Below, piece by piece: positions 2,339-54,088 of a stretch of DNA of 54,088 nucleotides. This DNA is from Minisyncoccota bacterium. Its GTDB lineage: Bacteria; Patescibacteriota; Minisyncoccia; Phycocordibacterales; UBA9973. How positions within the stretch are numbered: position 1 is the first letter of the stretch; each line of letters begins with the position of its first letter. The stretch covers positions 35,434-89,521 of the forward strand of contig JAGOSA010000001.1 in the NCBI GenBank assembly GCA_018062505.1, given 5' to 3'. A program made the position numbers and the translations under genes. The notes beneath the pieces are model-generated. The model was given only the letters and a program-made list of their open reading frames with translations, made no database searches and had not been told where the DNA came from.

Positions 2339-3865
2339 TCACTTGCCGCCAACAGTGTCGATTGCTGGATTTGTATTTTCATTTTTTTTCGATTTCTTAT
2401 TTCTCCATTCGAACGGATCAAATCTGTACAGCAAGAAAATGTACATCAAAGCCATTGCCCAAAATGGCGTGACAAGCGGCACGGCGGCGAGCGGAATTTT
2501 TGTCGAAATGTGAATAATGAATAAGATTGTGGCTGCAATCCATTCCACAATGAGCGCAAACGGCATTGCGAGCGGCAAATAGATAATGCCAACAATTGCC
2601 ACGACTGCCGCAAAAGCCATGAGGTATGGCATAAATGGCAAGACAGCAATGTTGGTAATCGGACTAATAATCGACAGCACGCCAGTCTTATACAAGATGT
2701 ATGGCAGAACAAACATTTGCGTGCCAATTGTTCCGGCGGCGATTTCTCGCCACGGAAGCCCGAACTTTTTCTCCGGCAGCCATGTGAACCAGTGCGCTAC
2801 TGTCGGCGCAAAATAAATAATGCCGACGGTCGCCAGAAACGAAAGCTGCGACGAAACATCATAATAAAGCGTGTACGGATTGATCGCTGTCATCACAAAA
2901 GCCGCAAGCATGAGCACGAGGCCGATGTTGGCTTGCCGACCTTTGGCTTTTGCAAAAAGAACAATGCAGCCCATAATCCCCGCTCGCACTGCGCTCGACT
3001 GCAAACCTGTCATGACAACAAAAAGAACAATCGCAAGTCCTCCCATAGCAAGTGCACCAGAGAGCGGCAGAAATGAAAATAAATCTTTAAAGAAATTTGC
3101 GACAATACTAACGTTGTATCCTGAAAGCGCAATGATATGTGTCGTGCCAGTCGTAATAAATTCGTCGCGATTTTCTTTGGTAATTTGCTTGTCGCCAAGC
3201 AGAACACCGCTCGACAGGCTGCCATTCATCCCCGGAAGCAATGTCTTGAGCACATTCTCCAAATTATTTTCGAATCGCAAAAGCGTGCGCAAAATCGGAT
3301 TGCCTTTGTTTTTTTCTGTCACAGCAATATTTGTAGCTTTGACGATACCGAGGATGCCGTCTTTTTTGAGGAAATTCGGATAGTCGAACATGCCGCCAGT
3401 CGATGTCTCAAACGACTCAGGCTTTTCGAGCTTCCCTTTCACGACAACCATATCGCCATATGAATACTCGCGGCCTTCACTTTCGCGTACTTGGAATTTT
3501 ATTTTTTCTTTATTATTTTTTATCTCTCCCTTAACAATGAATTGGTTACCATTAGTTCCGGCTTCAGACGAAGCCACGACCATGCCGGCAAGATTAATGT
3601 TTTGATCAAACGGAAGAGAAGCAATTTTCTGATTTACTTTGCTTTCTGTATACGCAAAACGAAACATTGCGAGCGCTGCAAATAGTAAAAAAATAATGTA
3701 AGCACTTTTAGTGTGTCCCTTTCTCCTGTCCGGCCAAATAAAAATGCCGACTGCTATTGCAATCGGCATCATGTATATAAAACTATTTCGGAAGAGACTT
3801 GCTATGAGCATTCCGGCGAGCCAACCGGCAATGCCTTCCTTTACGCGATTTTTCCTGCTGTCCAC
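2339..3865 (-). CDS. comEC: ComEC/Rec2-family DNA internalisation channel protein (no beta-lactamase domain)
   Basis: Polytopic membrane protein with an OB-like insert (GDMVVVKGKLEKPE). The competence-domain signature TTGTTHIIALSGYNVSIV is present. An alternative start lies at 3811; the listed start overlaps the rnhA end by 25 nt. Confidence 0.8.
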   Translation of the reverse strand: MDSRKNRVKEGIAGWLAGMLIASLFRNSFIYMMPIAIAVGIFIWPDRRKGHTKSAYIIFLLFAALAMFRFAYTESKVNQKIASLPFDQNINLAGMVVASSEAGTNGNQFIVKGEIKNNKEKIKFQVRESEGREYSYGDMVVVKGKLEKPESFETSTGGMFDYPNFLKKDGILGIVKATNIAVTEKNKGNPILRTLLRFENNLENVLKTLLPGMNGSLSSGVLLGDKQITKENRDEFITTGTTHIIALSGYNVSIVANFFKDLFSFLPLSGALAMGGLAIVLFVVMTGLQSSAVRAGIMGCIVLFAKAKGRQANIGLVLMLAAFVMTAINPYTLYYDVSSQLSFLATVGIIYFAPTVAHWFTWLPEKKFGLPWREIAAGTIGTQMFVLPYILYKTGVLSIISPITNIAVLPFMPYLMAFAAVVAIVGIIYLPLAMPFALIVEWIAATILFIIHISTKIPLAAVPLVTPFWAMALMYIFLLYRFDPFEWRNKKSKKNENTNPAIDTVGGK

Positions 3866-18788: not shown

Positions 18789-20273
18789 ATGAAAACTCTT
18801 CTCATGAGCACAAAATCAATGATCACTGCCTGCCAAAAGTGGTACATGAAGAGTGCTCATTATTTCTATCTACGTTTTCTGAAACCAAAGTCTATAAATG
18901 AGGATGAAAAAAGAAGTGAAGGTATTCTTACTCTTCTATTATTTATTGCCTTAATAATCAATGCATTTTTCGAAATAGTTCTTATTTTCCTGCACCTCAG
19001 CGTTAATAACTATGAAGGAATACCGTTAACTGTATTCTCATTAATATTTGCGTTCTTTATTTTACTATTTATAGCCGCCAGAAAGGGTTACCATTTATTT
19101 GCTGGCTATTGTTTTGTATTTCTAATTCTTGCTTCAACAATTTACGGCAGTTATATGTGGGGAGCAAGTTTGCCAATGGGACTACTTTCATATGGACTAG
19201 TGGTGACTATTGCGAGCATAGTAATTAATAGTAGATTTGGTTTTATTATTGCCCTGATAGCTTGTTCGTCAATTGTAATAACTGGACTACATGAGCACTC
19301 TAGTCAAATTATTCCAGAATGGAAACAGGCGGCTATAGAAAAACGCGACGTTATAAGCTACGGCATCATGATCGGTCTCACCGCCCTACTCTCTCGGCTA
19401 TCAAACAAAGAAATGGAAAAATCACTTAAACGCGCGAGGACATCCGAGCAGGCACTCAAAGAAGAGCGAGACAATCTCGAAATCACGGTTCAAGAAAGGA
19501 CTAGGGCGCTCCGCGAATCAGAGCGGGAGCGCATGCGCGAACTGTATCGCTTTGCTGAATTCGGCAAGCTCTCCGGCGGCATCTTCCATGACTTGCTCAA
19601 CCCGCTGACTGCCGTTTCGCTCTCTGTCGAAAAACTTTCAGCAGACAGCAGCATCAAAACCAGCAGCAGCGAAGAAGCTGTTCGTTCGCTCAAGACCGCA
19701 GTTAGCGCAACCAAGAAAATGGAGCAATTTATGGCCACTGTAAAAAAGCAGATTCAGTCCAACGACATGCGCGGCGCATTCTCTCTCAATGAAGAAATCG
19801 AAGACGCAATCGAACTCATCAAGCACAAGGCCATAAAAACCAATACCTCGATCATTTTTGATTCCGCCGCTTCGCACCAAACATACGGCAATCCCCTCAA
19901 ATTAAACCAAGTCATCACAAATCTTCTTATTAATGCAATCGACGCAGGAGCCACAGAAATTATTGTTAGCCTTTCTGCTTCGCCACAACTAGAAAATAAA
20001 ATCGTCTGCATAATCAAAGACAATGGCAGCGGCATGCCGCCCGACATCTCCAAAAACATTTTCACGCCATTCTATACAACAAAAGAAAAAGGCATTGGCC
20101 TTGGGCTTTCAACAACGAAGGACATTGTCGAAGAGCACTTTGGCGGATCGATTGACTGCCAAAGCTCTACAGGGAACCAAAACGACAGCGGCACCAGTTT
20201 TACTATTATTCTTTCATCACATGATTTCAATTCTCCATCCGTTAACAGAATCGAAGAAACAGAAAATAGCTGA
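18789..20273 (+). CDS. membrane sensor histidine kinase
   Basis: Multiple N-terminal TM helices. The H-box is FHDLLNPLTAV. The ATPase boxes are NLLINAIDAG, DNGSGMPPD and GIGLGLSTTKDIV. Confidence 0.85.
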   Translation: MKTLLMSTKSMITACQKWYMKSAHYFYLRFLKPKSINEDEKRSEGILTLLLFIALIINAFFEIVLIFLHLSVNNYEGIPLTVFSLIFAFFILLFIAARKGYHLFAGYCFVFLILASTIYGSYMWGASLPMGLLSYGLVVTIASIVINSRFGFIIALIACSSIVITGLHEHSSQIIPEWKQAAIEKRDVISYGIMIGLTALLSRLSNKEMEKSLKRARTSEQALKEERDNLEITVQERTRALRESERERMRELYRFAEFGKLSGGIFHDLLNPLTAVSLSVEKLSADSSIKTSSSEEAVRSLKTAVSATKKMEQFMATVKKQIQSNDMRGAFSLNEEIEDAIELIKHKAIKTNTSIIFDSAASHQTYGNPLKLNQVITNLLINAIDAGATEIIVSLSASPQLENKIVCIIKDNGSGMPPDISKNIFTPFYTTKEKGIGLGLSTTKDIVEEHFGGSIDCQSSTGNQNDSGTSFTIILSSHDFNSPSVNRIEETENS

Positions 20274-27109: not shown

Positions 27110-27532
27110 TTAAAATTCTCGATACCTTGCATTGCCAGGATGGCCAAACAAATGCAGCAGCAGATCTTTGTCCGACCCAAAATGAACCCTGCTGACTTCG
27201 TACTTATTTTCGGCAAGTAAAGTATTTTCAAGCTGATCAAAAAAGGCAATGCCAATTTTGAATGGAGCAAGCTTGTGCGAAAGATGGGCAAACGGGCAAA
27301 GCACAATACGATTCTCTTTTGTTTCGAGGCAAAACTTTTCTATCTCTTTGGCAATCTTTGGAATGACGTGCTCGAAATCATCTTCCTGCTCGACAGTGAT
27401 CCAAGCAACGATACACTCCTCGTGATCAAAACTATTGTGAGTAATTGCTTCAGGCGCAACATCTACGCCGCGAGTCGAAAGCCCGCTGATGTTTGCATTA
27501 AACTTTTTGCAATGAAAAAGGATAGATCTCAT
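27110..27532 (-). CDS. free-standing archaeal-type threonyl-tRNA synthetase editing domain (tRNA-Thr_ED / DTD-like fold)
   Basis: By eye it aligns along its full length to the Pyrococcus-type ThrRS N-terminal editing domain. Matching segments are MRSILFHC, ECIVAWITVEQEDD, IVLCPFAHLSHKLAP and HFGSDKDLLLHLFGHPGNARYREF. Confidence 0.75.
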   Translation of the reverse strand: MRSILFHCKKFNANISGLSTRGVDVAPEAITHNSFDHEECIVAWITVEQEDDFEHVIPKIAKEIEKFCLETKENRIVLCPFAHLSHKLAPFKIGIAFFDQLENTLLAENKYEVSRVHFGSDKDLLLHLFGHPGNARYREF

Positions 27533-34520: not shown

Positions 34521-35567
34521 CTACTTATGGAGACCCCGCAAAGCAAGCGCGAGCGCTGGCAAGTATTTGAGGCTTTCTGCTTGAGTAAGTTCAGGGACTT
34601 CATTTTGAAGCGGCACATTTTTGAAAGGTTCAGGAGTGCGCGTTTCGATATGGAGCGAAGCTTCGAGGTAGGCTGGCATACCTGGGATTGTTGCGCCGAG
34701 GCCAACGAGCGTGACTTGGTGGACGCGACACTCTTTTTCTTTGCGGCAATCAACGTGCCAGTAGAGAAATGTTTTTTCGGCGGCTTCGACAAGCTTGCGG
34801 AATTCGCCGCGCAAGCACTGAATGATCCCATCATTTGTCGTGAGAGAGATGCCATCAAAGAAAAGCGCTTCGGCCGCGGCCTCCTTTTCGACATCAAATG
34901 TCTCCATTATTTTTTGTATCCAAATATCTGTTCCAGTTGAAACAACTTCTTCGAGCACGAGCGAACCTTTCGACAAAATAGTGATCGATGTTTCGTGCGC
35001 TTTGATCGCAATAACAATACTTGCTGCATCGTCGAGGCCGATGAGCTCAGCGACAATTTCAGTTGAGAGACCAACATACTTGAGCTTAAAATTCGCTTTT
35101 TCGGCAATCGCCTTCATGTCGTCGATCGGCGGCTGCGGCAGCATCGTGACAGCGACTTTCGTATTATTCTTCTCCCGATAGAGAATTTCGGTCTGCATAA
35201 CAAAATCATGTCGATCACCAATCGCTTTTTTGATTTCCCTTTCAACCATGTGCTCGAGCAAAAAAGGATCACTCTCAGGGAGTGTCATTTCGAAAAAAGT
35301 TGCAGCGCCGTCTGGAAGCGCGATCTGCAATGTTTTAGTACTTGATCGACGATGAAGGTTTGCAAAAATGTGCGCAAGTTCAGCATCGCGTGAATCTTTG
35401 TCGCCACTGTCGGATTCGAGGGCAACTTCGCCAAAGCGCGAAATAGAAATGCCGCGAGATGTCGCAATCGCTTCGACGTATGAAACAAGATGGTCTTCAA
35501 TAGCAACGCCAAGCGCCGCTTTTTTGCCGGAGACAGGAAGTTTGATTTTGCTAGTTTGTTTTTTCAT
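34521..35567 (-). CDS. pilM: PilM-like actin-fold ATPase (type IV pilus assembly)
   Basis: Size and layout fit PilM/FtsA-like proteins: an N-terminal peptide then LGVAIED, AIKAHETSITIL and VTLVGLGATIPGMPAYLE. Confidence 0.55.
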   Translation of the reverse strand: MKKQTSKIKLPVSGKKAALGVAIEDHLVSYVEAIATSRGISISRFGEVALESDSGDKDSRDAELAHIFANLHRRSSTKTLQIALPDGAATFFEMTLPESDPFLLEHMVEREIKKAIGDRHDFVMQTEILYREKNNTKVAVTMLPQPPIDDMKAIAEKANFKLKYVGLSTEIVAELIGLDDAASIVIAIKAHETSITILSKGSLVLEEVVSTGTDIWIQKIMETFDVEKEAAAEALFFDGISLTTNDGIIQCLRGEFRKLVEAAEKTFLYWHVDCRKEKECRVHQVTLVGLGATIPGMPAYLEASLHIETRTPEPFKNVPLQNEVPELTQAESLKYLPALALALRGLHK

Positions 35568-46437: not shown

Positions 46438-46710
46438 ATGGCAACTACACCAAAAGCAAAGTCTGCGAATTCAGCGTTCATGAAGCCTATGACAATCAGC
46501 GAAGATCTCGCAGCCGTTGTCGGTAAGGGCCCAATGCCTCGCTCAGAAGTCGTTAAGGCTATCTGGGTCTACATCAAGAAGAACGATCTTCAGGATCCTA
46601 AGAACAAGCGTAACATCGTCGCTGACGCAAACCTCAAAAAGGTTTTCGGTGGCAAGGCGGTAGTCAACATGTTCGAAATGACAAAGCTCGTTTCAAAGCA
46701 CCTCTCATAA
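46438..46710 (+). CDS. SWIB/MDM2-domain protein
   Basis: LAAVVGKGPMPRSEVVKAIWVYIKKNDLQDPKNKRNIVADANLKKVFG is the canonical SWIB core. Confidence 0.8.
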   Translation: MATTPKAKSANSAFMKPMTISEDLAAVVGKGPMPRSEVVKAIWVYIKKNDLQDPKNKRNIVADANLKKVFGGKAVVNMFEMTKLVSKHLS

Positions 46711-46726
46711 GTTTTGTTTTCCCCGC

Positions 46727-46752
46727 AAAAGCGCCCATCATCGGGCGCTTTT
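46727..46752 (+). terminator. rho-independent terminator
   Basis: AAAAGCGCCC-atcatc-GGGCGCTTTT. Confidence 0.75.
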
Positions 46753-46779
46753 GTCATTAAAGTGTAGTAAAATGTTCTC

Positions 46780-47238
46780 ATGCAAGAACTTACTTGGATT
46801 ATGCCGGCATCGCACAAAGAAAGAAGCGTAGACTGGTTTTGGGCAATCGGCATCATTACGCTCGTCGGTGCCGGAACAGCATTCTTCGTCAACAATGCGC
46901 TCTTTGGTATTTTCATTCTCCTTGGCGGCGGATTGCTTTTCTATACAAACCTCAACAAGCCGAACGACACATCTATACATATCAATGAAAAAGAAATAAC
47001 CGTCAGCGGACTGAGCTACAAGACAAATAAAATGAAAGGCTTTGCAGTCGTCAAAAACGCGAAAGACCAGAATTTGCTGATTGTGCGAACAGATCGCTTC
47101 TTTTTGCCTATTCTCATTATCCATGTCGCCGACCACGTCTCGGTAGAGCAACTTGAAGACATGCTCGAGAAGCGTATTCCTAAGGAAGACCTTCGCGAAC
47201 CACCAGCAAATGCTGTGGCTGAGAAGCTTGGATTCTAG
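46780..47238 (+). CDS. hypothetical 2-TM membrane protein
   Basis: 152-aa ORF with two N-terminal TM helices (WFWAIGIITLVGAG, LFGIFILLGGGLLFY). Confidence 0.4.
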   Translation: MQELTWIMPASHKERSVDWFWAIGIITLVGAGTAFFVNNALFGIFILLGGGLLFYTNLNKPNDTSIHINEKEITVSGLSYKTNKMKGFAVVKNAKDQNLLIVRTDRFFLPILIIHVADHVSVEQLEDMLEKRIPKEDLREPPANAVAEKLGF

Positions 47239-47302
47239 ACGAAATGGGGTGTTTAGCGTATAGTATCTCCGCGCGAGCCTTATAGTCGCGCTCAAGAAAG
47301 AC

Positions 47303-47374
47303 GGCCCCGTCGTTCAATGGATAGGACATGAGTTTGCGGAATTCAAGATGCAGGTTCGATTCCTGCCGGGGTCA
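47303..47374 (+). tRNA. tRNA-Arg (anticodon GCG)
   Basis: GGCCCCG TC GTTC AATGGATA GGAC A TGAGT TTGCGGA ATTCA AGAT GCAGG TTCGATT CCTGC CGGGGTC A. Anticodon positions 34-36 are G336 C337 G338. Confidence 0.85.
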
Positions 47375-47409
47375 CACGCTAGTGCGAGGTTCGGGAGACC
47401 GAGAGGGAT
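47372..47409. repeat. 38-bp direct repeat, left copy (identical to 52851-52888)
   Basis: tcacacgctagtgcgaggttcgggagaccgagagggat. It overlaps the last 3 nt of tRNA-Arg(GCG). Confidence 0.95.
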
Positions 47410-47437
47410 ATCCCTTTCTAATATCGAACTTTTAAAA

Positions 47438-47467
47438 CAAAAGTCGCCAATTGGCGACTTTTGTTTT
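47438..47467. terminator. bidirectional terminator just inside the island
   Basis: Perfect palindrome CAAAAGTCGCCAA/TTGGCGACTTTTG followed by TTTT. Confidence 0.75.
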
Positions 47468-47488
47468 CGGATTCGGCCTTTTCATTTT

Positions 47489-48046
47489 TTATTGCGACTC
47501 ACTACTCACACCATTCCTCGCGACATTTTCAGCATCTAGAATTATCCCGTTAATGACATTTATATATTCCTTTTCTGGCGAGGTTATTTGGTCGGTTAAT
47601 TTACCCTCCTTGTACCATGTACAAATGCTACTGTTAACGACATAGAATTCATCTTTAGTCATAGTTGGAACTGAAGCAGGATCCTCTATCGGCGCGATTT
47701 TATAACTAGTAAGCTCATCAATGACTTTTACCACTTTTTTGTCCTTAAGAACAACTGAGACTGTTCTGAATCCTGTTTCCCCGGAATGCTTATCTTCAAT
47801 CAAAACCACATCATTATTCTTATCAGTAAAAATTCTTCTATATGAGCCATCTGTAGCTTGTCTGTCTAGTTCATTTTCTTGAACATTATAATTACCACTT
47901 TCAGCAAGAACCTTACTTACATACGAATCAATTTCTGACTGATTCGAGCTACAATTAATGGCAATATTTTTATCGTGTTTATTATATGCAATGATGCCAA
48001 CTGCAAATAAAACTATAATTATGAGAATTGATATATATTTTTTCAT
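47489..48046 (-). CDS. hypothetical N-terminally anchored/secreted protein
   Basis: MKKYISILIIIVLFAVGIIAYNK anchor. It is AT-rich with no motif. Confidence 0.45.
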   Translation of the reverse strand: MKKYISILIIIVLFAVGIIAYNKHDKNIAINCSSNQSEIDSYVSKVLAESGNYNVQENELDRQATDGSYRRIFTDKNNDVVLIEDKHSGETGFRTVSVVLKDKKVVKVIDELTSYKIAPIEDPASVPTMTKDEFYVVNSSICTWYKEGKLTDQITSPEKEYINVINGIILDAENVARNGVSSESQ

Positions 48047-48054
48047 TAATTCAA

Positions 48055-48468
48055 TTAGTCCTCGTAAACAGATACAGTTGTGACTATTTCTCCATCAAAA
48101 GTCACTTTAAGCCATTTATTATCTGCCGCCGTAAAATCTATCCAGTATAGCCACACGGAAGCATTGTATGTATTATCATCGATACCAATTAGATCTTTAA
48201 CTTGTTCTTTATTCTTGCCAATTAGATTGGCTGATCTTATGAGCGAATATGCCATCTTCTTTCGGTTAGATAATTCCCGGTATGCAGAGTTGCCATCTAC
48301 ATTGGAACTTTGGAATCTTTCATATGATTTAACCCATTCAATTGAGTCAAATTTTTTAGGAAAAATATAATTTCTTATATTTGGAGTAGAAAAGCATATG
48401 GCGACGATGGCTAGTAAAGTGATTAATACAATTATTATTATTATTATTATTTTGGTTCTTTTAGTCAT
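48055..48468 (-). CDS. hypothetical N-terminally anchored protein
   Basis: MTKRTKIIIIIIIVLITLLAIVAICF anchor with no motif. Confidence 0.45.
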   Translation of the reverse strand: MTKRTKIIIIIIIVLITLLAIVAICFSTPNIRNYIFPKKFDSIEWVKSYERFQSSNVDGNSAYRELSNRKKMAYSLIRSANLIGKNKEQVKDLIGIDDNTYNASVWLYWIDFTAADNKWLKVTFDGEIVTTVSVYED

Positions 48469-48469
48469 T

Positions 48470-48607
48470 TTATTTCTTTATTTGGGAATTTTTTAAGATG
48501 AACTGATCTTCCCGAACTTCCAATGTAATAAACGGCCAAGTTATTTGCCAAGAGCCAATCCATGCCCCACCACGAAATTTATTATTTCGATTTATATCAT
48601 TAAACAT
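48470..48607 (-). pseudogene. truncated 45-codon copy of the N-terminus of the 48898-49227 gene
   Basis: Translation is MFNDINRNNKFRGGAWIGSWQITWPFITLEVREDQFILKNSQIKK*. It lies in the 124-bp repeat, and its ATG overlaps the upstream stop by 1 nt. Confidence 0.6.
48484..48607. repeat. 124-bp direct repeat copy 1 (119/124 identical to 49104-49227)
   Basis: Base-by-base comparison of the two copies gives 5 mismatches. Confidence 0.95.
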
Positions 48608-48867
48608 TAGAGAATAATAATCAATAACTGTGTTATCGCACCAAGCATTATTATCAAAGCAACTATTATTATCAGTGAATAGGAACTTTTATCCGATCTG
48701 GCTTCCATACTTTCTAATACTTTTTGATTTAGAAAATCTTTACGTTTAGATAAATAGCTCTTTTGAAGTGAGTACATTTTCTTTCTGTAGATGATTGCAA
48801 TGATGCTACCAATTATCAACATAATTAAAACTACTATTTGATATATATCTCCTATTTTATCTTGCAT
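48607..48867 (-). CDS. hypothetical 2-TM small membrane protein
   Basis: The TM helices are IYQIVVLIMLIIGSIIAIIY and YSLIIIVALIIMLGAITQLLIII. Confidence 0.45.
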   Translation of the reverse strand: MQDKIGDIYQIVVLIMLIIGSIIAIIYRKKMYSLQKSYLSKRKDFLNQKVLESMEARSDKSSYSLIIIVALIIMLGAITQLLIIIL

Positions 48868-48897
48868 TATTTTTTAGATCTTCTTATTCATTTTTTA

Positions 48898-49227
48898 CTA
48901 AACTCTTGCACCATACCAACCAAATTTTTTAAGAGAATCAATCAAACTATCAAATCGAAAGCTCCAGTACCAAAAATAATATTTAGTTTCCTTAGATTTA
49001 TCACGGAGTACAATGTTGATGCCGTGACCGATTATTGGTAGATATTTTTTTACCTCGATTTTTTCGACTGAGTCACGGGTAAAATAGTATTCTTTCTTGA
49101 ATAGGGAATTTTTTAAGATGAGCTGATCTTCCCGAACTTCCAATGTAATAAACGGCCAAGTTATTTGCCAAGAGCCAATCCATGCCCCGCCACGAAATTT
49201 ATTATTTTGATTTATATTATTAGACAT
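48898..49227 (-). CDS. hypothetical protein (109 aa), full-length copy of the duplicated N-terminus
   Basis: MSNNINQNNKFRGGAWIGSWQITWPFITLEVREDQLILKNSLFKKEYYF... The start lies 2 nt after the stop of the upstream orphan fragment. Confidence 0.5.
   Translation of the reverse strand: MSNNINQNNKFRGGAWIGSWQITWPFITLEVREDQLILKNSLFKKEYYFTRDSVEKIEVKKYLPIIGHGINIVLRDKSKETKYYFWYWSFRFDSLIDSLKKFGWYGARV
49104..49227. repeat. 124-bp direct repeat copy 2
   Basis: See 48484-48607. Confidence 0.95.
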
Positions 49228-49232
49228 TATTA

Positions 49233-49481
49233 TTTTCTTATATTATTGATAATATTTTTAATACCCCGACCAACAGAAGATCCTGCAGAACTTACACTAC
49301 TTTTAAAGTTATTAATCACATTAGAAATATTACCTTGAAAAATTGGATATGTTTTACTTACACCCCCACTGAATGTAATAGGAATAGCAATAGGGCTTAG
49401 TCTTGCCCCTACTCCGATACCGACATCTGTTCCAGTGTATCCTCCATTGGAAAAGTTAGTCGTAACATCTCCACCGAGCTT
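49233..49481 (-). pseudogene. orphan 3' fragment of a Gly/Ser-rich protein gene (no start codon)
   Basis: An 83-codon open frame between an in-frame TAG (49482-49484) and TAA (49230-49232). It reads KLGGDVTTNFSNGGYTGTDVGIGVGARLSPIAIPITFSGGVSKTYPIFQGNISNVINNFKSSVSSAGSSVGRGIKNIINNIRK. No ATG is present, and the only alternative start is near the end. Confidence 0.5.
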
Positions 49482-49536
49482 CTATTTGAAGCGTAGCAAA
49501 AGGAATATCAACAATCAATGAGTTGTGGATATTCTT

Positions 49537-49557
49537 TTACTGCACGGTGTGCAGTAA
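49537..49557. promoter_or_regulatory. perfect inverted repeat TTACTGCAC-GGT-GTGCAGTAA, candidate LexA-type operator
   Basis: The 9-bp arms are perfectly complementary. The core CTG-N9-CAG resembles the CTG-N10-CAG SOS box. It lies 60-80 nt upstream of the lexA-like ATG. Confidence 0.5.
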
Positions 49558-49577
49558 CCTCTATATTCATTATCCAC

Positions 49578-49606
49578 TTGCATTTTTGTTTACCTGTCTG
49601 TATACT
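49578..49606 (+). promoter_or_regulatory. sigma70-like promoter of the lexA-like/cap5/CD-NTase operon
   Basis: TTGCAT (49578-49583), a 17-nt spacer, then TATACT (49601-49606). The ATG is at 49617, which implies a very short leader. Confidence 0.45.
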
Positions 49607-49616
49607 ACTGTTTACC

Positions 49617-50240
49617 ATGCATACCGCACTAAGTGAGAAGGATAAAAAGGCCTTCACATTCATCCGGAACCGCATTATTCACTTTGGGAAGAGTCCTTCC
49701 CTTCGTGAGATAAACACGGTAACCGAAGATAAGTCACCCCGCTCGGCAAGTTTGGTAATCAATCGGCTTATTCATGCTGGTTTGATACGAAAGATCGAAG
49801 ACAAAATTCTGCTTACATCAAATATTGACCAATTACAGGACTCAGTGACGACAGTAAAAGTTCCACTCGTCGGATCAGTCCCCTGCGGATCACCCATGCT
49901 TGCAGAAGAGAACATTACAGCCTATATATCTGTTTCAACAGCACTTGCCAAACCAGGATCAAAATATTTCCTTCTTCGTGCCGTGGGAGATTCCATGAAT
50001 CTCGCCGACATCAATGATGGTGATATTCTCCTCGTTCGGCAACAAAGCATGGCTGAAAACAACCAACGAGTGGTTGCTCTCATTGACGACGAAGCGACCG
50101 TAAAGATTCTCGAAAGAAAAAATGAGTACGTTATTCTTCGACCAAAATCATCCAACAAAGAACACAAGCCAATTGTCTTAACAGATAATTGCAAGATCCT
50201 AGGCGTAGTTATTTCAGTACTACCATCGGATCTTCACTAG
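49617..50240 (+). CDS. lexA: LexA-type repressor (winged HTH + S24 self-cleaving peptidase domain)
   Basis: The N-terminal LSEKDKKAFTFIRNRIIHFGKSPSLREIN...SASLVINRLIHAGLIRK forms the HTH. The linker is VPLVGSVPCGSPMLAEENI (C-G where LexA has A-G). The Ser motif is AVGDSM and the Lys motif EATVKIL. Start taken at MHTALSE; the track ORF start at 49518 would cover the promoter. Confidence 0.8.
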   Translation: MHTALSEKDKKAFTFIRNRIIHFGKSPSLREINTVTEDKSPRSASLVINRLIHAGLIRKIEDKILLTSNIDQLQDSVTTVKVPLVGSVPCGSPMLAEENITAYISVSTALAKPGSKYFLLRAVGDSMNLADINDGDILLVRQQSMAENNQRVVALIDDEATVKILERKNEYVILRPKSSNKEHKPIVLTDNCKILGVVISVLPSDLH

Positions 50241-50243
50241 TTC

Positions 50244-51405
50244 ATGCACACAACAGAAAATTCCGGAAAATCCGTCAAACGTATTTCAAGAGATAAAATT
50301 AAATCACCTACTAAGGATGTTTTAATTGTCCGCTCTGGTGGGAGATGTCAGTTTAATGGATGCAATCGATATCTTTTTAAACATTCTCTTACTCAAGACG
50401 AAGGTAATTACGCACAAGTTGCCCACATTGTCGCATACAGCAAACAAGGTCCTCGAGCGAGCCAATTGCTTACTAAAGAATACATTAATGACCCAGAAAA
50501 CTTAATGCTTCTTTGCCATGAGTGCCACCACCTTGTGGACACAAAACCTGAATCGTATACTGTCGAACTACTTAAAAAGTATAAACACGAGCACGAGGAG
50601 AGGGTATTTCAGCAAACTGAAATAAAATCAGAATTAAAAACCTCAATCCTTCAACTGAAATCAATCATAGGGAGCCAGGCGGTGGATATCCCTGCAGCTG
50701 ATGTTCGAATGGCAATAGCGCCTCGTTTCCCTGTTGATGCGAAAGGATGTGTTATGGATCTTACTCAATTTTCCCAAGAAGATCCGGCATTTTATAGTGT
50801 CGCTAAAGACTACATAAACAAACAAGTGGATGCTTTCCTTTCGGCAGGAGTAGAGTCATTGCCCATTAAGCACATTTCCCTATTTGCTCTCGCTCCAATA
50901 CCAATTCTCGTATTCCTTGGATCGAAGCTCGGAAACAAGATTGCGCTGAATGCTTATCAAAGGCACAGAGACACGGAAGATTGGAAATGGAAAGACAATG
51001 AAGACCCTCTTGTTTTTACTTACGAGAAAATTAAAAACGGCAACGATCCACACCAAGTTTCTCTTGTCGTTTCGGTGAGCGGAAATATTATGTCCGATAA
51101 TCCGCCGAATTTTACCGACGACACGAGCGTATACCTGCTGACACCAGAAGGCGGCAAAGCCGGCTATTCTATTCTGAAAAATGCCGAAAGTGTACACAAT
51201 TTTCAAAAAAACATACCGAGAGCTTTTGAGTTTAATCCTTAAAGAACATTCAGGACTTTCGGAAATCAATCTTTTTGCAGCATGCCCCGCCCCTATCGCC
51301 ATTCACTGCGGCAGAGAGATTATGCCCAAAATTGATCCTAGGGTAATAGTTCACGATTATAACAGGACTGCCGGAGGCTGGCTGGAAGTATTAAAAATTA
51401 ACTAG
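50244..51405 (+). CDS. cap5: Cap5-like CBASS effector: N-terminal HNH endonuclease + SAVED domain, interrupted by a 1-nt frameshift (frame 0 ends 51242; frame +1 continues 51178-51405)
   Basis: The HNH domain reads CQFNGCNRYL...HIVAYSKQGPR...NLMLLCHECHHLVD. The two SAVED halves are ISLFALAPIPILVFLGSKL...YQRH and, in the +1 frame, INLFAACPAPIAIHCGREI...VHDYNR. An A7 run lies at 51205-51211. Confidence 0.75.
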
Positions 51406-51414
51406 TTGAAAATT

Positions 51415-52716
51415 ATGAACAACATAAACAATTACCTTCAAGAGTTGCTCGTCTCTCAAAACCTAACGGAAGAACAAGAAGAAACTCTGCAGTCACACAA
51501 AGAAGAAGTTACCAGCTTCCTGCGTGCTAAATTTGGAGACAGCCCAAAGATAAAATATGCTGGTTCAAAGGAAAAAGGTACAATGATTCGCGACAACTAC
51601 GATCTAGATATTGTTTGTTACTTCCCTAGCACCGACGAACGCACATTGAAAGAAATCCGTGAAGACGTTTCAGATCACCTTGGTGAAAAATATATGATGG
51701 AAGACAAAGCTTCCGCTGAACGTATCTTAGATCTGAAAGATTCCAATAGCCCTCGTGGATACCACATTGATGTTGTACCAGGAAGATTCATCGAGGGCAC
51801 AAATGATGTTTTCCTTCACCTTGCCGAAGGCGACAAAGAACGACTCCAAACAAATCTTAAAACTCACATTAGCCACATCGCCAATAGCGGATGTGTTCCA
51901 GTTATCCGTCTCGCAAAAATTTGGGCACATCGAAACAAGATAGAGATTAAAACATTTATACTCGAACTGTTTATCGTTGAAATTCTAAATGACAGCAAAA
52001 CAAAAGATGATCTTGAAAAATCGTTCCTAATAGTGATCGAAGCAATGAAAGATCGTTTTAATTCGATCCAAATTATTGATCCAGCCAACACAAACAATAT
52101 TGTTTCTAAACTAATGGAGCCTACAGCAAAAACTGCAGTTGTATATGCCGCAGAAGGTGCTTATGAACAAATTGAAGATTCAAATAATCTATCAGATTGG
52201 AAAAGTATTTTTTGCGATACTTCTAAAGAAAATATTACTCCAGTCGTAATAGAGAATTCACGCGACTTAGCGCTATCAGACTTTTCTCATCGACAGGATT
52301 TGTCAGATGAAGGTATTGTCGACTACGGCACATACCCATGCTCTGTAGAAATTAAAGCTGAAATTTGGTTCCGTGGCCCGCACGATAAAAAAATAAATCG
52401 ACGCTCTCATGGTTTTGTAAATTCTAAGACACTTATTCCAACTTGGCATGAAATTGATTACACTGCGACAACCGATGCCCCGATGCCATACGATATTTAC
52501 TGGCAAGTAGTTAATACTGGCATGCATGCAAGTCAAAAGAATGGTCTTCGTGGAGAAATTTTCCCCGGCGAAAGAGTCAGAACAGAACACACATTATTTC
52601 ATGGAGTTCACTGGATTGAGTGCTTTATAGTCTCAAAAGAAGGGGTTTGCATAGCGCGCAGCGGTCCCTTTTATGTTGCGTTTCGTAACCCAAACTTTCT
52701 TCAGCTACCTTCTTAG
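51415..52716 (+). CDS. SMODS/CD-NTase-family nucleotidyltransferase with C-terminal AGS-C-like beta-rich domain
   Basis: The Pol-beta NTase motifs are YAGSKEKGTMIRDNYDLDIV and HIDVVPG. The OAS/CD-NTase-type helix is RLAKIWAHRNKIEIKTFILELFIVEIL. A C-terminal ~145 aa (...YDIYWQVVNTGMHASQKNGLRGEIF...HGVHWIECFIV...) follows. TTG at 51406 is an alternative start directly after the cap5 stop. Confidence 0.75.
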   Translation: MNNINNYLQELLVSQNLTEEQEETLQSHKEEVTSFLRAKFGDSPKIKYAGSKEKGTMIRDNYDLDIVCYFPSTDERTLKEIREDVSDHLGEKYMMEDKASAERILDLKDSNSPRGYHIDVVPGRFIEGTNDVFLHLAEGDKERLQTNLKTHISHIANSGCVPVIRLAKIWAHRNKIEIKTFILELFIVEILNDSKTKDDLEKSFLIVIEAMKDRFNSIQIIDPANTNNIVSKLMEPTAKTAVVYAAEGAYEQIEDSNNLSDWKSIFCDTSKENITPVVIENSRDLALSDFSHRQDLSDEGIVDYGTYPCSVEIKAEIWFRGPHDKKINRRSHGFVNSKTLIPTWHEIDYTATTDAPMPYDIYWQVVNTGMHASQKNGLRGEIFPGERVRTEHTLFHGVHWIECFIVSKEGVCIARSGPFYVAFRNPNFLQLPS

Positions 52717-52850
52717 TTAATTCAAACTGTGTCTCATTTGTCTCATTTCTAAAAACTAACCCTTGACCGAGAGGGTTCACCGCCTCGCCGCCAAAAGTGC
52801 TAGAATACCCTTATACGGTCTCACCTCTCTTGGTTCTAGACCGACGAGCT

Positions 52851-52888
52851 TCACACGCTAGTGCGAGGTTCGGGAGACCGAGAGGGAT
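52851..52888. repeat. 38-bp direct repeat, right copy
   Basis: All 38 positions are identical to 47372-47409. The flanking bases differ on both sides. Confidence 0.95.
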
Positions 52889-52933
52889 CTCGTTAGTCTA
52901 AATAAAAAAATATTGATATAGTCATTACTATAT

Positions 52934-53236
52934 ATGGGAATTGAGATAGAACTCGGTATTTTGATTATTATCCAGCTTCTCGCAAGCTCTTTTTTCGGCC
53001 ACTTTGAAGTCGGCACGCCTGCATGGAGGAAAATAGTGAAGTGGCTCGTGTTGGATAGCATCACTGTCGCGCTCTACTTTGGCATCGGCCACTATGCCCT
53101 CATTTTCCCACTTGCCATTGCTATTCTGGGTACCACCGTTCACATCAGGATTTGCAAAAAGAACGGTATTGATCCCTTGAAAGCCACACCCCGAGATAAA
53201 TACTACAAACTGCGTGGCTGGAAACTTGAAGAGTAA
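52934..53236 (+). CDS. small 3-TM membrane protein, coupled upstream of the P-type ATPase
   Basis: 100-aa hydrophobic ORF. Its stop lies 4 nt before the ATPase ATG. Confidence 0.45.
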   Translation: MGIEIELGILIIIQLLASSFFGHFEVGTPAWRKIVKWLVLDSITVALYFGIGHYALIFPLAIAILGTTVHIRICKKNGIDPLKATPRDKYYKLRGWKLEE

Positions 53237-53240
53237 TACA

Positions 53241-54088
53241 ATGTTCAAAGAAATAATCAAAAATAAAAAGTTCAGGTTTCTCTTGCTGGCGCTCGCACTG
53301 GTCATTCCTTTTGAAATTCTCTCATTCGCCGACAAACACTTTCCGCTCTCCGTCGAAGCGCCGCTCTTTATAATCCTCATCGGTGTCGTTGGACGAAAGG
53401 TATTCATTAAAGGGTTCAAGAGCTTACTCAAGCTCAAGTTCTCGAGCATTAACCTCCTCATGACTATCGCCGTCTTCGGCGCACTGTATCTCCGTCAATT
53501 CGAGGAAGCGGCGATCATCGTCATTTTATTCTCGCTCGGCGAAGCGCTCGAAGATTTTGGTATCGACAAGAGCAAGTCGGCGCTTCAGGAATTGGTGAAC
53601 AAAAATCCCAAGTCAGTCACCCTCAAAGGCAATACCGAAAAAACCGCTATAGAAAACGTGAAGATCGGTGACATTTTCATCGTGAAAAATGGCGACCACA
53701 TCGCTCTCGACGGCACGATCGTTTCCGGCGAATCGCTCATCGATGAATCATCAATCACGGGTGAGCCATTGCCAAAGAGCAAGTATATTGGTGACTTCGT
53801 CTATTCAGGAAGCGTGAACGGCCATGGGTACCTTGAGGTGAAAGCCACCAAAGAAGCCAAGGACACGACGCTCTCGAAAATTATCAAGCTCACCTACGAA
53901 GCGGCAGCCAAGAAATCCGAGTCACAGCAATTCATCGACAAGTTTGCCAAGTACTACACGCCACTCGTCATGCTGGCCGCTTTCTTGGTGGTTCTCATTC
54001 CTGTCGTCTTTCTCAATCTGCCATTTGAAAAGTGGTTCACTGAAGCACTTACCCTCCTCATCATTTCCTGTCCGTGCGCCTTGGTGAT
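53241..54088 (+). CDS. heavy-metal (Cd/Zn/Co-type) P1B-type ATPase, N-terminal part (continues beyond window end), no HMA domain
   Basis: Absent from the ORF track because it has an open end. Translation is MFKEIIKNKKFRF...DESSITGEPLPKSK (TGE actuator motif) ...LTLLIISCPCALV (CPC metal site in the TM helix). Confidence 0.9.
   Translation, partial: MFKEIIKNKKFRFLLLALALVIPFEILSFADKHFPLSVEAPLFIILIGVVGRKVFIKGFKSLLKLKFSSINLLMTIAVFGALYLRQFEEAAIIVILFSLGEALEDFGIDKSKSALQELVNKNPKSVTLKGNTEKTAIENVKIGDIFIVKNGDHIALDGTIVSGESLIDESSITGEPLPKSKYIGDFVYSGSVNGHGYLEVKATKEAKDTTLSKIIKLTYEAAAKKSESQQFIDKFAKYYTPLVMLAAFLVVLIPVVFLNLPFEKWFTEALTLLIISCPCALV

Follow-up and report, generated by a model that had tools for sequence, protein, structure and literature searches.

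An integrative islet beside a tRNA gene is carried by the small genome studied here, that of a tiny-celled, Nomurabacteria-like member of the Patescibacteria (CPR). The window, a stretch of 54,088 nucleotides, holds a strain-variable islet at 47410-52888 (5,479 bp including one repeat unit), whose insertion point is the trailer just 3' of tRNA-Arg(GCG). It is a real integrated islet, since the site is empty in other strains, and its cargo is the debris of conflict systems: orphan immunity-like genes, a toxin tip and a CBASS operon with a broken Cap5. We read it, with a probability of roughly two in three, as a decayed, non-autonomous, CIME-like integrative islet that arose by Campbell-type recombination of circular DNA. 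The original prediction of an att-like integration next to a tRNA, with subsequent decay, thus draws support from the empty site, the composition, the joined ends of the island and its decay, while the recombination may be either site-specific or driven by homology across the 38-mer.

The repeat, its tRNA anchor and the empty sites

The islet is delimited by two exact forward-strand copies of a 38-mer, TCACACGCTAGTGCGAGGTTCGGGAGACCGAGAGGGAT, at 47372-47409 (the attL core) and 52851-52888 (the attR core). These are the only exact copies in the window; a search allowing up to 3 mismatches returned the same two and nothing extra, the 16-nt core of the repeat is confined to the same two places, and 0/100 shuffled controls gave any 38-mer match. 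Exact search and flank comparison agree with the prediction on both the positions and the unlike flanking bases on either side. Leftward, a weak and imperfect extension brings the similarity to 60 nt at 83% overall, the extra bases matching at 10/19 (binomial p = 0.016). An identity of 38 bp is also what homology-driven recombination would need.

The tRNA-Arg(GCG), on the forward strand, spans 47303-47375 in ARAGORN and 47303-47374 in Rfam (58.8 bits) and has no encoded CCA. Given these two ends, the left copy covers the last 3-4 nt of the gene, namely two acceptor-stem bases and the discriminator A. The 38-mer is essentially the tRNA trailer, unlike the usual tRNA 3' half; its left copy is the native trailer and recurs without any change in the sister species L001 and the empty-site contigs. 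In 10 related lineages the tRNA stands after a 152-aa gene, and in all relatives it marks the site as its conserved anchor. Further copies of the 38-mer were looked for and the repeat is not dispersed: besides the two copies in the window, GTDB species representatives give a single match, which lies at the orthologous site, and the fetched relatives have the 38-mer linked to tRNA-Arg only.

The empty site, looked for in related assemblies, is present and precise in three independent metagenome assemblies, L004, L009 and L010 (sequencing runs SRR28715692, SRR35626165 and SRR28715693), as tRNA-Arg, one 38-mer and the 52934 gene. This first right-flank gene (52934-53236, forward strand) encodes a 100-aa membrane protein and was the query that retrieved both empty and occupied sites. 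The three contigs continue straight across the single 38-mer. Moreover, the empty-site strain differs from the window at 21/735 positions left of the tRNA and is therefore a different lineage; a mis-join of one and the same genome does not account for the empty contigs. Precisely at the tRNA/38-mer the divergence drops to 0-1 per 570-1238 nt, a step which shows that homologous recombination has acted here too. The sister species L001 carries the tRNA and the 38-mer once, followed by unrelated DNA; cargo at tRNA-Arg was found in 0/10 related lineages, and the insertions in four other lineages all begin exactly after the discriminator base.

Composition and cargo

The higher AT content of the enclosed 5.4 kb, first noticed by eye, is outlying in both measures computed. 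The island interior has a GC of 0.378, against a mean of 0.447 (sd 0.011, minimum 0.421) in 420 other 5.4-kb windows, and a tetranucleotide distance of 0.307, a measure that elsewhere reaches at most 0.244. Within it lie two modules, 47410-49490 at GC 0.325 and 49491-52716 at GC 0.408, and the composition of both these distinct modules is shown to be foreign.

The AT-rich left module is the remnant of an Rhs/YD toxin-immunity array, with all of its genes on the reverse strand. It starts with a 185-aa protein whose N-terminal segment is hydrophobic and which has no family assigned (47489-48046), followed by a 137-aa protein (48055-48468) whose poly-Ile N-terminal segment (MTKRTKIIIIIIIVL) comes partly from the (att)n run singled out in the original prediction, which is real and lies within the stretch coding for that segment. 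Next come a duplicate of the 5' part of the 109-aa gene (48470-48609; 140 bp, 94% identical to 49090-49229, with 74% amino acid identity to the L042 homologue), an 86-aa hydrophobic protein (48607-48867) and the 109-aa protein itself (48898-49227). The closest relative of the latter, at 77% identity, is encoded at L042 3547-3858, behind a TEN_YD-shell protein in an Rhs/YD toxin array, and the 109-aa protein is probably an immunity protein. The module closes with an Rhs/YD polymorphic-toxin gene reduced to its orphan 3' end (49230-49484; 84 codons, without a start), which matches the C-terminal tip of an L042 Rhs-core protein (41% over 82 aa, E = 6e-17) and is the tip of an Rhs-type toxin, left at the module junction as a scar of the mosaic.

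The second module carries a type I CBASS operon, a decaying anti-phage system, on the forward strand. Its first gene (49617-50240) encodes a LexA-type repressor with HTH and S24 peptidase domains in Pfam (NCBIfam lexA 139.9 bits, cut-off 110.95), followed by the HNH-SAVED effector Cap5 (50244-51405) and a CD-NTase (SMODS) fused to an AGS-C sensor domain (51415-52716). A 9-3-9 palindrome, TTACTGCAC-GGT-GTGCAGTAA (49537-49557), 60 nt upstream of the LexA-type gene, is an SOS-box-like candidate operator, and the operon is probably SOS-inducible via its own LexA-type repressor. Cap5 is broken by a +1 frameshift in an A7 run at 51205-51211, which yields the same 332-aa product in 3 assemblies and is predicted to inactivate the nuclease. 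The content originally listed (anchored small proteins, a duplicated gene start, an orphan gene end and the LexA/Cap5/CD-NTase operon) is hence confirmed, and the suspected decay is evident in the frameshifted Cap5, the truncated toxin gene and the internal 140-bp duplication. As had also been claimed, the island has no integrase gene: a scan of 40 ORFs of the window, all island ORFs included, gave no recombinase domain, and the islet is hence non-autonomous.

Arms, joined ends and rival origins

Both ends of the island carry structured arms. The right-end arm 'Z' (52794-52850, forward strand) has a host-like GC, and its last 22 nt mimic the T-arm/acceptor 3' end of a tRNA, in register with tRNA-Arg; Z and the 38-mer together fold at z = -3.84, and no partial tRNA-Arg copy was found at up to 2 mismatches. 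On the island side of the left repeat stands the T2 hairpin, a bidirectional terminator (47434-47467; a perfect 17+17 palindrome, fold z = -6.1), which is homologous to a hairpin behind a 38-mer-like sequence in another species, L016. The small palindrome AGGGAT|ATCCCT pointed out at 47404-47415 is real and extends to an 18-bp near-palindrome, GAGAGGGAT|ATCCCTTTC (47401-47418), which is centred on the 38-mer/island junction, occurs neither at the empty site nor at attR, and is a candidate recombinase core site.

When the island ends are joined via one 38-mer (..52888 + 47410..), they become colinear with a contiguous stretch of L016 that lies downstream of the same tRNA. The identities are 51/57 in the Z arm, 19/19 and 11/19 in the first and second halves of the 38-mer, 15/24 in the next 24 nt and 25/34 in the T2 hairpin, and the alignment scores 209, compared with 162 when the actual attR and its right flank are used. 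Judged from the alignment, this colinearity would be the signature of a Campbell-type circle insertion that produced attL and attR. However, the attP-like sequence of L016 is chromosomal and not on a free element, which counts against reading the islet as an integrated circle.

According to the preferred scenario, a putative circular DNA would have recombined Campbell-type into the tRNA-Arg trailer, the 38-mer being the stretch common to attB (tRNA and trailer) and attP (Z arm, 38-mer and T2 hairpin). Integration would leave one 38-mer at each end, attL and attR, and recombination between the two would restore exactly the empty site of the other strains. The islet would most likely be what deletion has left of a larger integrative element, and could at present move only via a recombinase acting in trans or by RecA-type recombination across the 38-mer. 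Both the recombinase and the crossover position are putative, and the crossover could lie at either edge of the 38-mer, left or right. Further, with just 3 nt of the repeat inside the tRNA, carrying 35 nt of trailer has no obvious reason unless the element captured the trailer from a former host.

An unlikely competitor is homology-driven acquisition without a site-specific recombinase, by which DNA of a related genome in L016-like order (CBASS ... Z arm, 38-mer, T2, Rhs array) entered by natural competence, was circularised by end-joining of the truncated Rhs tip against the LexA promoter (~49485-49500), and was inserted when RecA made one crossover within the common 38-nt trailer, loss being the reverse reaction. 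ComEC and PilM are indeed encoded in the window, the orphan gene end coincides exactly with the module junction, the identity block comprises precisely what both partners share and no more, and the fall in divergence from 21/735 is the footprint of homologous exchange; the chromosomal order in L016 and the lack of a recombinase among the 40 ORFs point the same way. Yet this route requires an extra, unobserved circularisation step, 38 bp is about the lower limit for RecA-dependent recombination, and it leaves unexplained the in-register copy of the tRNA 3'-end geometry in the Z arm, the centring of the near-palindrome on the junction and the insertions of four other lineages that start exactly after the discriminator base.

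It is less probable still, and in our view quite improbable, that the island is ancestral, its two 38-mers having arisen when an L016-like locus was locally duplicated or rearranged and the empty sites being secondary deletions between these pre-existing copies, with no integration event. Deletion between direct repeats would equally yield a one-copy empty site, and the Z arm, 38-mer and T2 order is chromosomal in L016; the interior, however, is a strong compositional outlier of two unrelated modules, none of the ten related lineages has cargo at the tRNA, and the L016 order is circularly permuted here, an outcome of circle insertion but not of deletion or simple duplication. Finally, an artefact is effectively refuted, whether a chimera made in assembly at a dispersed repeat or a transposon that left a long target-site duplication. 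Short-read Logan contigs (SRR11088367, SRR11088409, SRR11088410 and SRR11088391) do start within the right-hand 38-mer, as expected where a repeat exceeds the assembly k-mer and branches the graph, but the longer, independent assemblies L002, L003 and L034 span both junctions identically. The repeat, moreover, is not dispersed, terminal inverted repeats are not reported at the island ends, a transposase domain was not found, and 38 bp is far above known target-site duplication lengths.

Likeness to known integrative elements

CIMEs (cis-mobilizable elements) are an established class of decayed ICE/IME remnants that keep attL and attR and have lost the integration and transfer genes (Guédon et al. 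2017, PMC5704250). The islet resembles them in lying between direct att repeats on the 3' side of a conserved gene, in its visibly decayed cargo without recombinase or transfer genes, and in that recombination between its repeats can regain the empty site; it differs in that a parent ICE or IME with its att site was not found. To our knowledge, conjugative elements are not documented in CPR bacteria, the host group of the islet.

The tycheposon islands of Prochlorococcus, tRNA-linked and built by successive integrations in streamlined genomes (bioRxiv 10.1101/2020.12.28.424599), offer a second comparison. Shared features are the small-genome host, a tRNA-adjacent island present or absent at strain level, degenerate integrase-less remnants beside an att motif, and defence or adaptive cargo. 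However, tycheposon att repeats are partial tRNA copies, whereas the islet repeat covers just 3 nt of the tRNA, and many tycheposons keep a tyrosine recombinase while no recombinase of any kind was found in the 40 ORFs scanned here.

IMEX are integrase-less elements that use the host XerCD at dif. Like them, the islet is without its own integrase and is flanked by direct target repeats, and its attP side is dif-like, with inverted half-sites around a 6-bp centre (GAGAGG-GATATC-CCTTTC). In contrast to IMEX, its target is a tRNA trailer rather than dif, its chromosomal copy is without a second half-site, and the cumulative GC skew is monotonic through the site, which is therefore not a terminus.

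No relative was found in which the island has both an integrase and these att arms. The nearest full-length CD-NTase relative (metagenome contigs L037/L038, 68% amino acid identity) sits on an island with the same CD-NTase and AGS-C architecture, a SAVED-domain effector upstream and a DNA-damage-type regulator ahead of the operon, and it likewise abuts a tRNA 3' end. That island differs in having its own large serine recombinase and methyltransferases, and CapH/CapP-type regulators (HTH and M78 peptidase) in place of LexA/S24; at the DNA level the CD-NTase gene alone is alignable to the islet (70.6%). There the CD-NTase gene adjoins the serine recombinase, against the 3' end of tRNA-Ser(GCT) rather than tRNA-Arg(GCG), so this CBASS lineage travels on tRNA-linked integrative islands.

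A repeat-bounded island and its empty site

Central to the island is the 38-mer TCACACGCTAGTGCGAGGTTCGGGAGACCGAGAGGGAT. The 54-kb window has two exact copies of it, one at 47372-47409 and one at 52851-52888, as the original prediction of a perfect direct repeat had it; no further copy was found in the window with 3 mismatches allowed (0 matches in 100 shuffles). The neighbouring tRNA-Arg(gcg) spans 47303-47375 according to ARAGORN and 47303-47374 according to Rfam, its CCA is not encoded, and the first bases of the left repeat are the final two of the acceptor stem plus the discriminator A, in keeping with the predicted overlap of three nucleotides with the tRNA. The island (47410-52888) thus begins 35 nt past the discriminator base at the tRNA 3' end. 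The repeat is exact, yet a mere 3 nt of it lie within the tRNA, and the bases outside both copies differ, again as foreseen. The 19 nucleotides further to the left retain a weak in-register likeness (GGTTCGATTCCTGCCGGGG versus GGTTCTAGACCGACGAGCT, 10/19 matches, binomial p = 0.016). The small palindrome noticed earlier at the junction is real and belongs to an 18-bp near-palindrome, GAGAGGGAT|ATCCCTTTC, which is centred on the boundary between the 38-mer and the island, at the island-side junction, and is missing from the empty site.

The AT-rich character that had been ascribed to the enclosed DNA holds up on both measures of composition, with the island interior more extreme than every other window. 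Its GC content is 0.378, whereas 420 equally long windows average 0.447 ± 0.011 and never fall below 0.421, and its tetranucleotide distance to the rest of the window is 0.307, the maximum elsewhere being 0.244.

Contigs encoding the 100-aa membrane protein of the right flank (52934-53236, plus strand) were used to retrieve both states of the site. Two occupied copies (L002 and L003) emerged from this look-up, and the anticipated empty site, where the tRNA-Arg leads through one 38-mer straight into the right flank, was found in three contigs from other sequencing runs, L004 (SRR28715692), L009 (SRR35626165) and L010 (SRR28715693); a single-copy site is also present in the sister species L001. 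The longer assemblies L002, L003 and L034 cross both junctions identically. Several short-read Logan contigs begin 8 nt into the right-hand repeat, as expected of a 38-bp repeat, at which a graph built with k = 31 branches. Left of the tRNA, the empty-site contig L009 differs from the window at 21/735 positions, and the empty-site contigs are therefore not mis-joins of the window's genome. To the right of the site, the differences number 0/570, 1/903 and 1/1238. The drop, seen between 46675-47302 and 52889-54088, falls precisely at the tRNA/38-mer (Fisher p = 6e-6 for 21/735 against 0/570, and 1e-8 against 1/1238); lineages have therefore swapped the right flank through homologous recombination that ended here. 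This flank, comprising the 100-aa protein and a P-type ATPase, is not syntenic in related species. It may have been acquired by recent exchange, or be part of a second island that extends past the end of the window.

The possibility that the 38-mer is a dispersed genomic repeat, raised along with the original prediction, did not hold. Among one genome per GTDB species, the exact 38-mer has a single match, the Candidatus Nomurabacteria MAG L001, where it occurs once, directly 3' of the orthologous tRNA-Arg, and is followed by unrelated DNA. Across all 42 fetched loci the core of the 38-mer adjoins the tRNA-Arg locus, the other occurrences being three chance matches from a loose metagenome scan. 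Exact-pattern scans with the core in IMG/VR and JGI metagenomes, and with the right end of the island (the Z arm, 52794-52850) in IMG/VR, gave no match; a looser pattern scan returned chance matches only, with neither a tRNA nor similarity to the window. Whole-island blastn against GenBank phages and PLSDB plasmids likewise gave no match.

A probable array remnant and a CBASS operon as cargo

The left module of the island (47410-49490; GC 0.325) carries all its genes on the minus strand and comprises small hydrophobic proteins of 185, 137 and 86 aa, a 109-aa protein, a 140-bp duplicate of the stretch where the 109-aa gene begins, and a gene end of 84 codons devoid of a start. The gene end resembles the C-terminal tip of an Rhs-core protein on L042, a contig with an Rhs/YD array (41% over 82 aa, E = 6e-17), and the 109-aa protein is 77% identical to the product of an L042 gene located after a TEN_YD-shell protein. 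Given these two matches, the left module is best described as the remnant of a polymorphic toxin-immunity array, seemingly cut off at ~49485. An Rhs/YD core gene is absent from the module, the 84-codon tip and the array-gene homologue being all that remains, and the 109-aa gene with its duplicated 5' fragment is a putative immunity-like gene. No relative of the 109-aa or the 185-aa protein emerged from tblastn-type scans of IMG/VR.

The right module (49491-52716; GC 0.408) is a type I CBASS operon, in the order LexA-type repressor, Cap5 (HNH-SAVED) and CD-NTase fused to AGS-C; the accessory genes Cap2/Cap3 and HORMA/TRIP13 are absent from this three-gene operon. The repressor scores 139.9 bits with NCBIfam lexA (cut-off 110.95) and carries a Pfam Peptidase_S24 domain. 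Its translation holds the motifs VPCG, GDSM and TVK, which, by comparison with LexA/UmuD, we take to be the cleavage site, the catalytic Ser and the catalytic Lys, respectively. A 9-3-9 palindrome resembling an SOS box (TACTG..CAGTA), TTACTGCAC-GGT-GTGCAGTAA, lies 60 nt upstream of the LexA-type gene, palindrome and gene together spanning 49537-50240. The CD-NTase (51415-52716) matches the PADLOC cyclase PDLC00803 (E = 1e-66) and Pfam AGS_C, and reaches 25.4 bits with Pfam SMODS, slightly below the cut-off of 26.5.

Cap5 is split by a +1 frameshift at an A7 run (51205-51211), and the operon therefore does not encode an intact HNH-SAVED effector. The gene is still recognisable: removal of one A restores a full-length HNH-SAVED protein of 386 aa, whose match to PADLOC PDLC00746 covers positions 7-388 of the 389 in the model. 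Three independent assemblies agree on the truncated 332-aa product, so that a sequencing error confined to a single data set is not the cause of the frameshift; it could reflect plain decay or a slippage-prone on/off tract.

Among the 120 best homologues of the CD-NTase-AGS-C protein listed, ~115 are ~300 aa long and cover ~60-70% of the query, hence without its C-terminal third, and the full fusion is shared by only four of the homologues listed (P0014, P0015, P0016 and P0019). The closest full-length protein (68% identity) is encoded on a contig that also holds a SAVED effector, an HTH/Peptidase_M78 pair of the CapH/CapP type, DNA methyltransferases and a large serine recombinase, and that directly abuts the 3' end of a tRNA-Ser(gct). 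Given this setting beside a recombinase and a tRNA, the CBASS lineage does travel with tRNA-linked integrative islands, and the copy in the window either has lost its recombinase or never had one. The sister system (L037) has CapH/CapP, where the operon in the window has a LexA-family repressor. We found no description of a LexA/S24-type CBASS regulator in the literature, where CapH/CapP, CapW and CapK/CapS are described; the arrangement suggests that a LexA/S24-type repressor can replace CapH/CapP ahead of CBASS.

The tRNA-Arg trailer in related lineages

The tRNA-Arg(gcg) is kept after a 152-aa gene in 10/10 related lineages, and a trailer consisting of the 38-mer's first 16-23 nt (CACGCTAGTGCGAGGT..) recurs in the clade. 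This trailer stands directly 3' of the tRNA in the species of the window, in L001 (38/38) and in the related locus L023 (13/16), and is displaced behind a ~150-nt inserted module in L030 and a ~350-nt cassette in L016. The same ~150-nt module is found in L032 and L013; behind it, L032 retains only CACGCTA of the trailer that follows the module in L030, and L013 has no recognisable trailer. In all four loci the inserted DNA starts exactly past the discriminator base, and its last bases are a tRNA-like ..CCA or ..TCA. The module, located at L030 2993-3125, L032 1829-1960, L013 10601-10740 and L026 ~973-1100 (the L026 contig stops within it), consists of a terminator hairpin followed by GTGACGG..CGGAG..GGGGTCGCGGAAATTCGCGAG..GTGGCCA, and no Rfam family matched it. 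Seven other lineages carry a plain terminator directly 3' of the tRNA-Arg, and the 38-mer is therefore not needed for the tRNA itself. Moreover, its 38/38 identity between the window species and L001 stands against a neighbouring protein that is only 66% identical and a tRNA leader that matches at 34/45; the chance of such identity at the leader's rate is ~2e-5. Homogenisation by a visiting element is one possible explanation.

One of these relatives bears directly on the topology of the island. The arm left of the right repeat, taken together with 19 nt of that repeat (52807-52869), has a counterpart in L016 with 95% identity. When the two island ends are joined through one 38-mer (..52888 + 47410..), they align colinearly with contiguous L016 DNA, over the Z arm (51/57), the 38-mer (19/19, then 11/19), the next 24 nt (15/24) and the terminator hairpin on the island side, at 47434-47467 (25/34). 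The alignment score to L016 is 209 for the joined ends and 162 for the actual attR and right flank. The order of the island is thus circularly permuted relative to one that is contiguous in nature, exactly as expected if a circle were inserted in Campbell fashion by way of the shared 38-mer.

Other proposals concerning the island ends and the modules were considered and set aside. The arm left of the right repeat and the modules of relatives are not partial copies of tRNA-Arg, since no copy of its last 12 nt was found within 2 mismatches, the sole match lying within a gene of L030 and being probably due to chance. What likeness to the tRNA is left consists of terminal mimicry (..TCA|CAC, ..CCA|CAC) and the 10/19 in-register matches. 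The right arm and 38-mer (52805-52890) are predicted to fold into a three-way structure (-37.8 kcal/mol, z = -3.84), in which the 3' half of the 38-mer would pair with the 5' part of the arm (CGGUCUC/GAGACCG). A conserved structured RNA was rejected despite this z-score, as the outer stem cannot form in L016. Rfam searches of the island and its ends found nothing except the tRNA; sub-threshold matches to sraL and STnc40, both on the terminator at 47434-47467, were dismissed.

An unannotated tRNA-like RNA of 70 nt was observed in relatives (L016 9737-9806; L013 10923-10992; L014 5372-5442), and is missed by ARAGORN and by Rfam at the gathering threshold. The acceptor stem is 7 bp long and contains G3·U70; the other elements are a mini D-arm, a canonical T-arm, and a 7-bp 'anticodon' stem with a 9-nt loop, YYUCACCAA. 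Compensatory changes distinguish L016 from L013, and the acceptor stem of the L014 copy is degenerate. Both L016 and L013 carry, ~100 nt upstream, a 15-nt stretch that is the reverse complement of the 5' half of the anticodon arm and is followed by a terminator. A covariance model of this RNA (R1) found no copy in the window, and the stretch 52765-52793 was rejected as its remnant, the resemblance being too weak. Elsewhere on L013, a related Parcubacteria-like contig, ARAGORN identifies a tRNA with the anticodon tta (19444-19517), a 'tRNA-Stop' reading UAA, which scores 70.4 bits with the Rfam tRNA model.

Origin of the island and its place among known elements

Consistent with the original prediction, Pfam domains of integrases, resolvases, recombinases or transposases were absent from 40 ORFs scanned across the window, all island ORFs included. 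A recombinase was also not found in the genes adjoining the site in relatives, and no element combining the Z arm or the 38-mer with a recombinase was detected in IMG/VR, JGI metagenomes, GTDB genomes, phages or plasmids; only the sister CBASS has one, at a different tRNA. The att-like reading proposed earlier is nevertheless supported by the empty sites, the foreign composition and the colinear joined ends. We consider it about two-thirds probable that a circular element recombined via the 38 nt shared with the tRNA-Arg trailer, leaving attL and attR on either side of the island, and that what is left in the chromosome today is a remnant, decayed and non-autonomous. L016, L030 and L032 point to a crossover at the 38-mer's left edge; the palindrome, and L001, which diverges at the same nucleotide, point to the right edge.

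The same topology could arise through RecA-type recombination following natural transformation, with the truncated toxin gene marking the joint of circularisation. In favour of this route, the block of identity is exactly the shared stretch and nothing more, and the fall in divergence from 21/735 to 0-1 differences coincides precisely with the tRNA/38-mer. The ComEC and PilM encoded in the window (2339-3865 and 34521-35567) are consistent with natural competence, on which CPR/Patescibacteria cells are thought to depend. The nucleotide-exact insertion points past the discriminator base in several lineages, the mimicry of the tRNA end by the inserted arms and the junction palindrome argue for a site-specific enzyme. 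We regard the homology-driven route, the main rival, as rather unlikely. That the island is ancestral and was deleted in other strains appears quite unlikely, and an artefact is barely conceivable, given the composition, cargo that is absent from all relatives, and the independent assemblies. A bolder proposal, to which we give little credence, is that the tRNA-Arg(GCG) trailer could be a dedicated recombination hotspot across the clade of Nomurabacteria-like CPR, where an unrecognised trans-acting system would swap integrase-less cassettes whose right ends mimic the tRNA 3' end, such as the Z arm, the ~150-nt module of L030, L032 and L013, and the tRNA-like RNA cassette of L016. Candidates would be a host-encoded recombinase, or an RNA-assisted system involving the structure of the Z arm and 38-mer and the neighbouring tRNA-like RNAs. 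If so, the 38/38 trailer identity across species would reflect homogenisation by, or selection for, that system.

Returning to the integrated circular element as the favoured origin, the combination of att repeats, tRNA, empty site and decayed cargo is textbook, and the island represents an integrase-less, att-flanked case at a tRNA. It displays several hallmarks of tRNA-linked integrative islands (the tRNA 3' end, a single-repeat empty site and deviating composition), except that these usually have an integrase at one end. In keeping attL and attR and lacking a recombinase, it is similar to CIMEs, in which att sites are kept and integration genes are lost (PMC5704250), and it resembles the degenerate remnants found beside tRNA-linked islands in Prochlorococcus (bioRxiv 10.1101/2020.12.28.424599). 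A transposon or IS with target-site duplication was rejected, there being no transposase domain and no terminal inverted repeats reported at the island ends, as was an IMEX at dif, since the target is a tRNA trailer and the site shows no GC-skew inflection. An integron cassette, a prophage and a satellite were rejected for want of their hallmarks.

The island is of note for its CPR host, for the clean pair of empty and occupied sites, and for a CBASS operon with a LexA-type regulator. In CPR/Patescibacteria, gene flow and mobile elements are, to our knowledge, poorly documented, and the site records to the nucleotide how a genome of this group gained or lost a defence islet. Since the island has no recombinase, it points either to mobilisation in trans or to an exchange of cassettes, driven by homology, at a tRNA trailer that is conserved. 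The site could also be used to track strain-level turnover of defence in metagenomes. Among the other genes of the window, 27110-27532 encodes a stand-alone 140-aa protein that matches tRNA-Thr_ED (E = 2e-21), an editing domain specific to the threonyl-tRNA synthetase of archaea.
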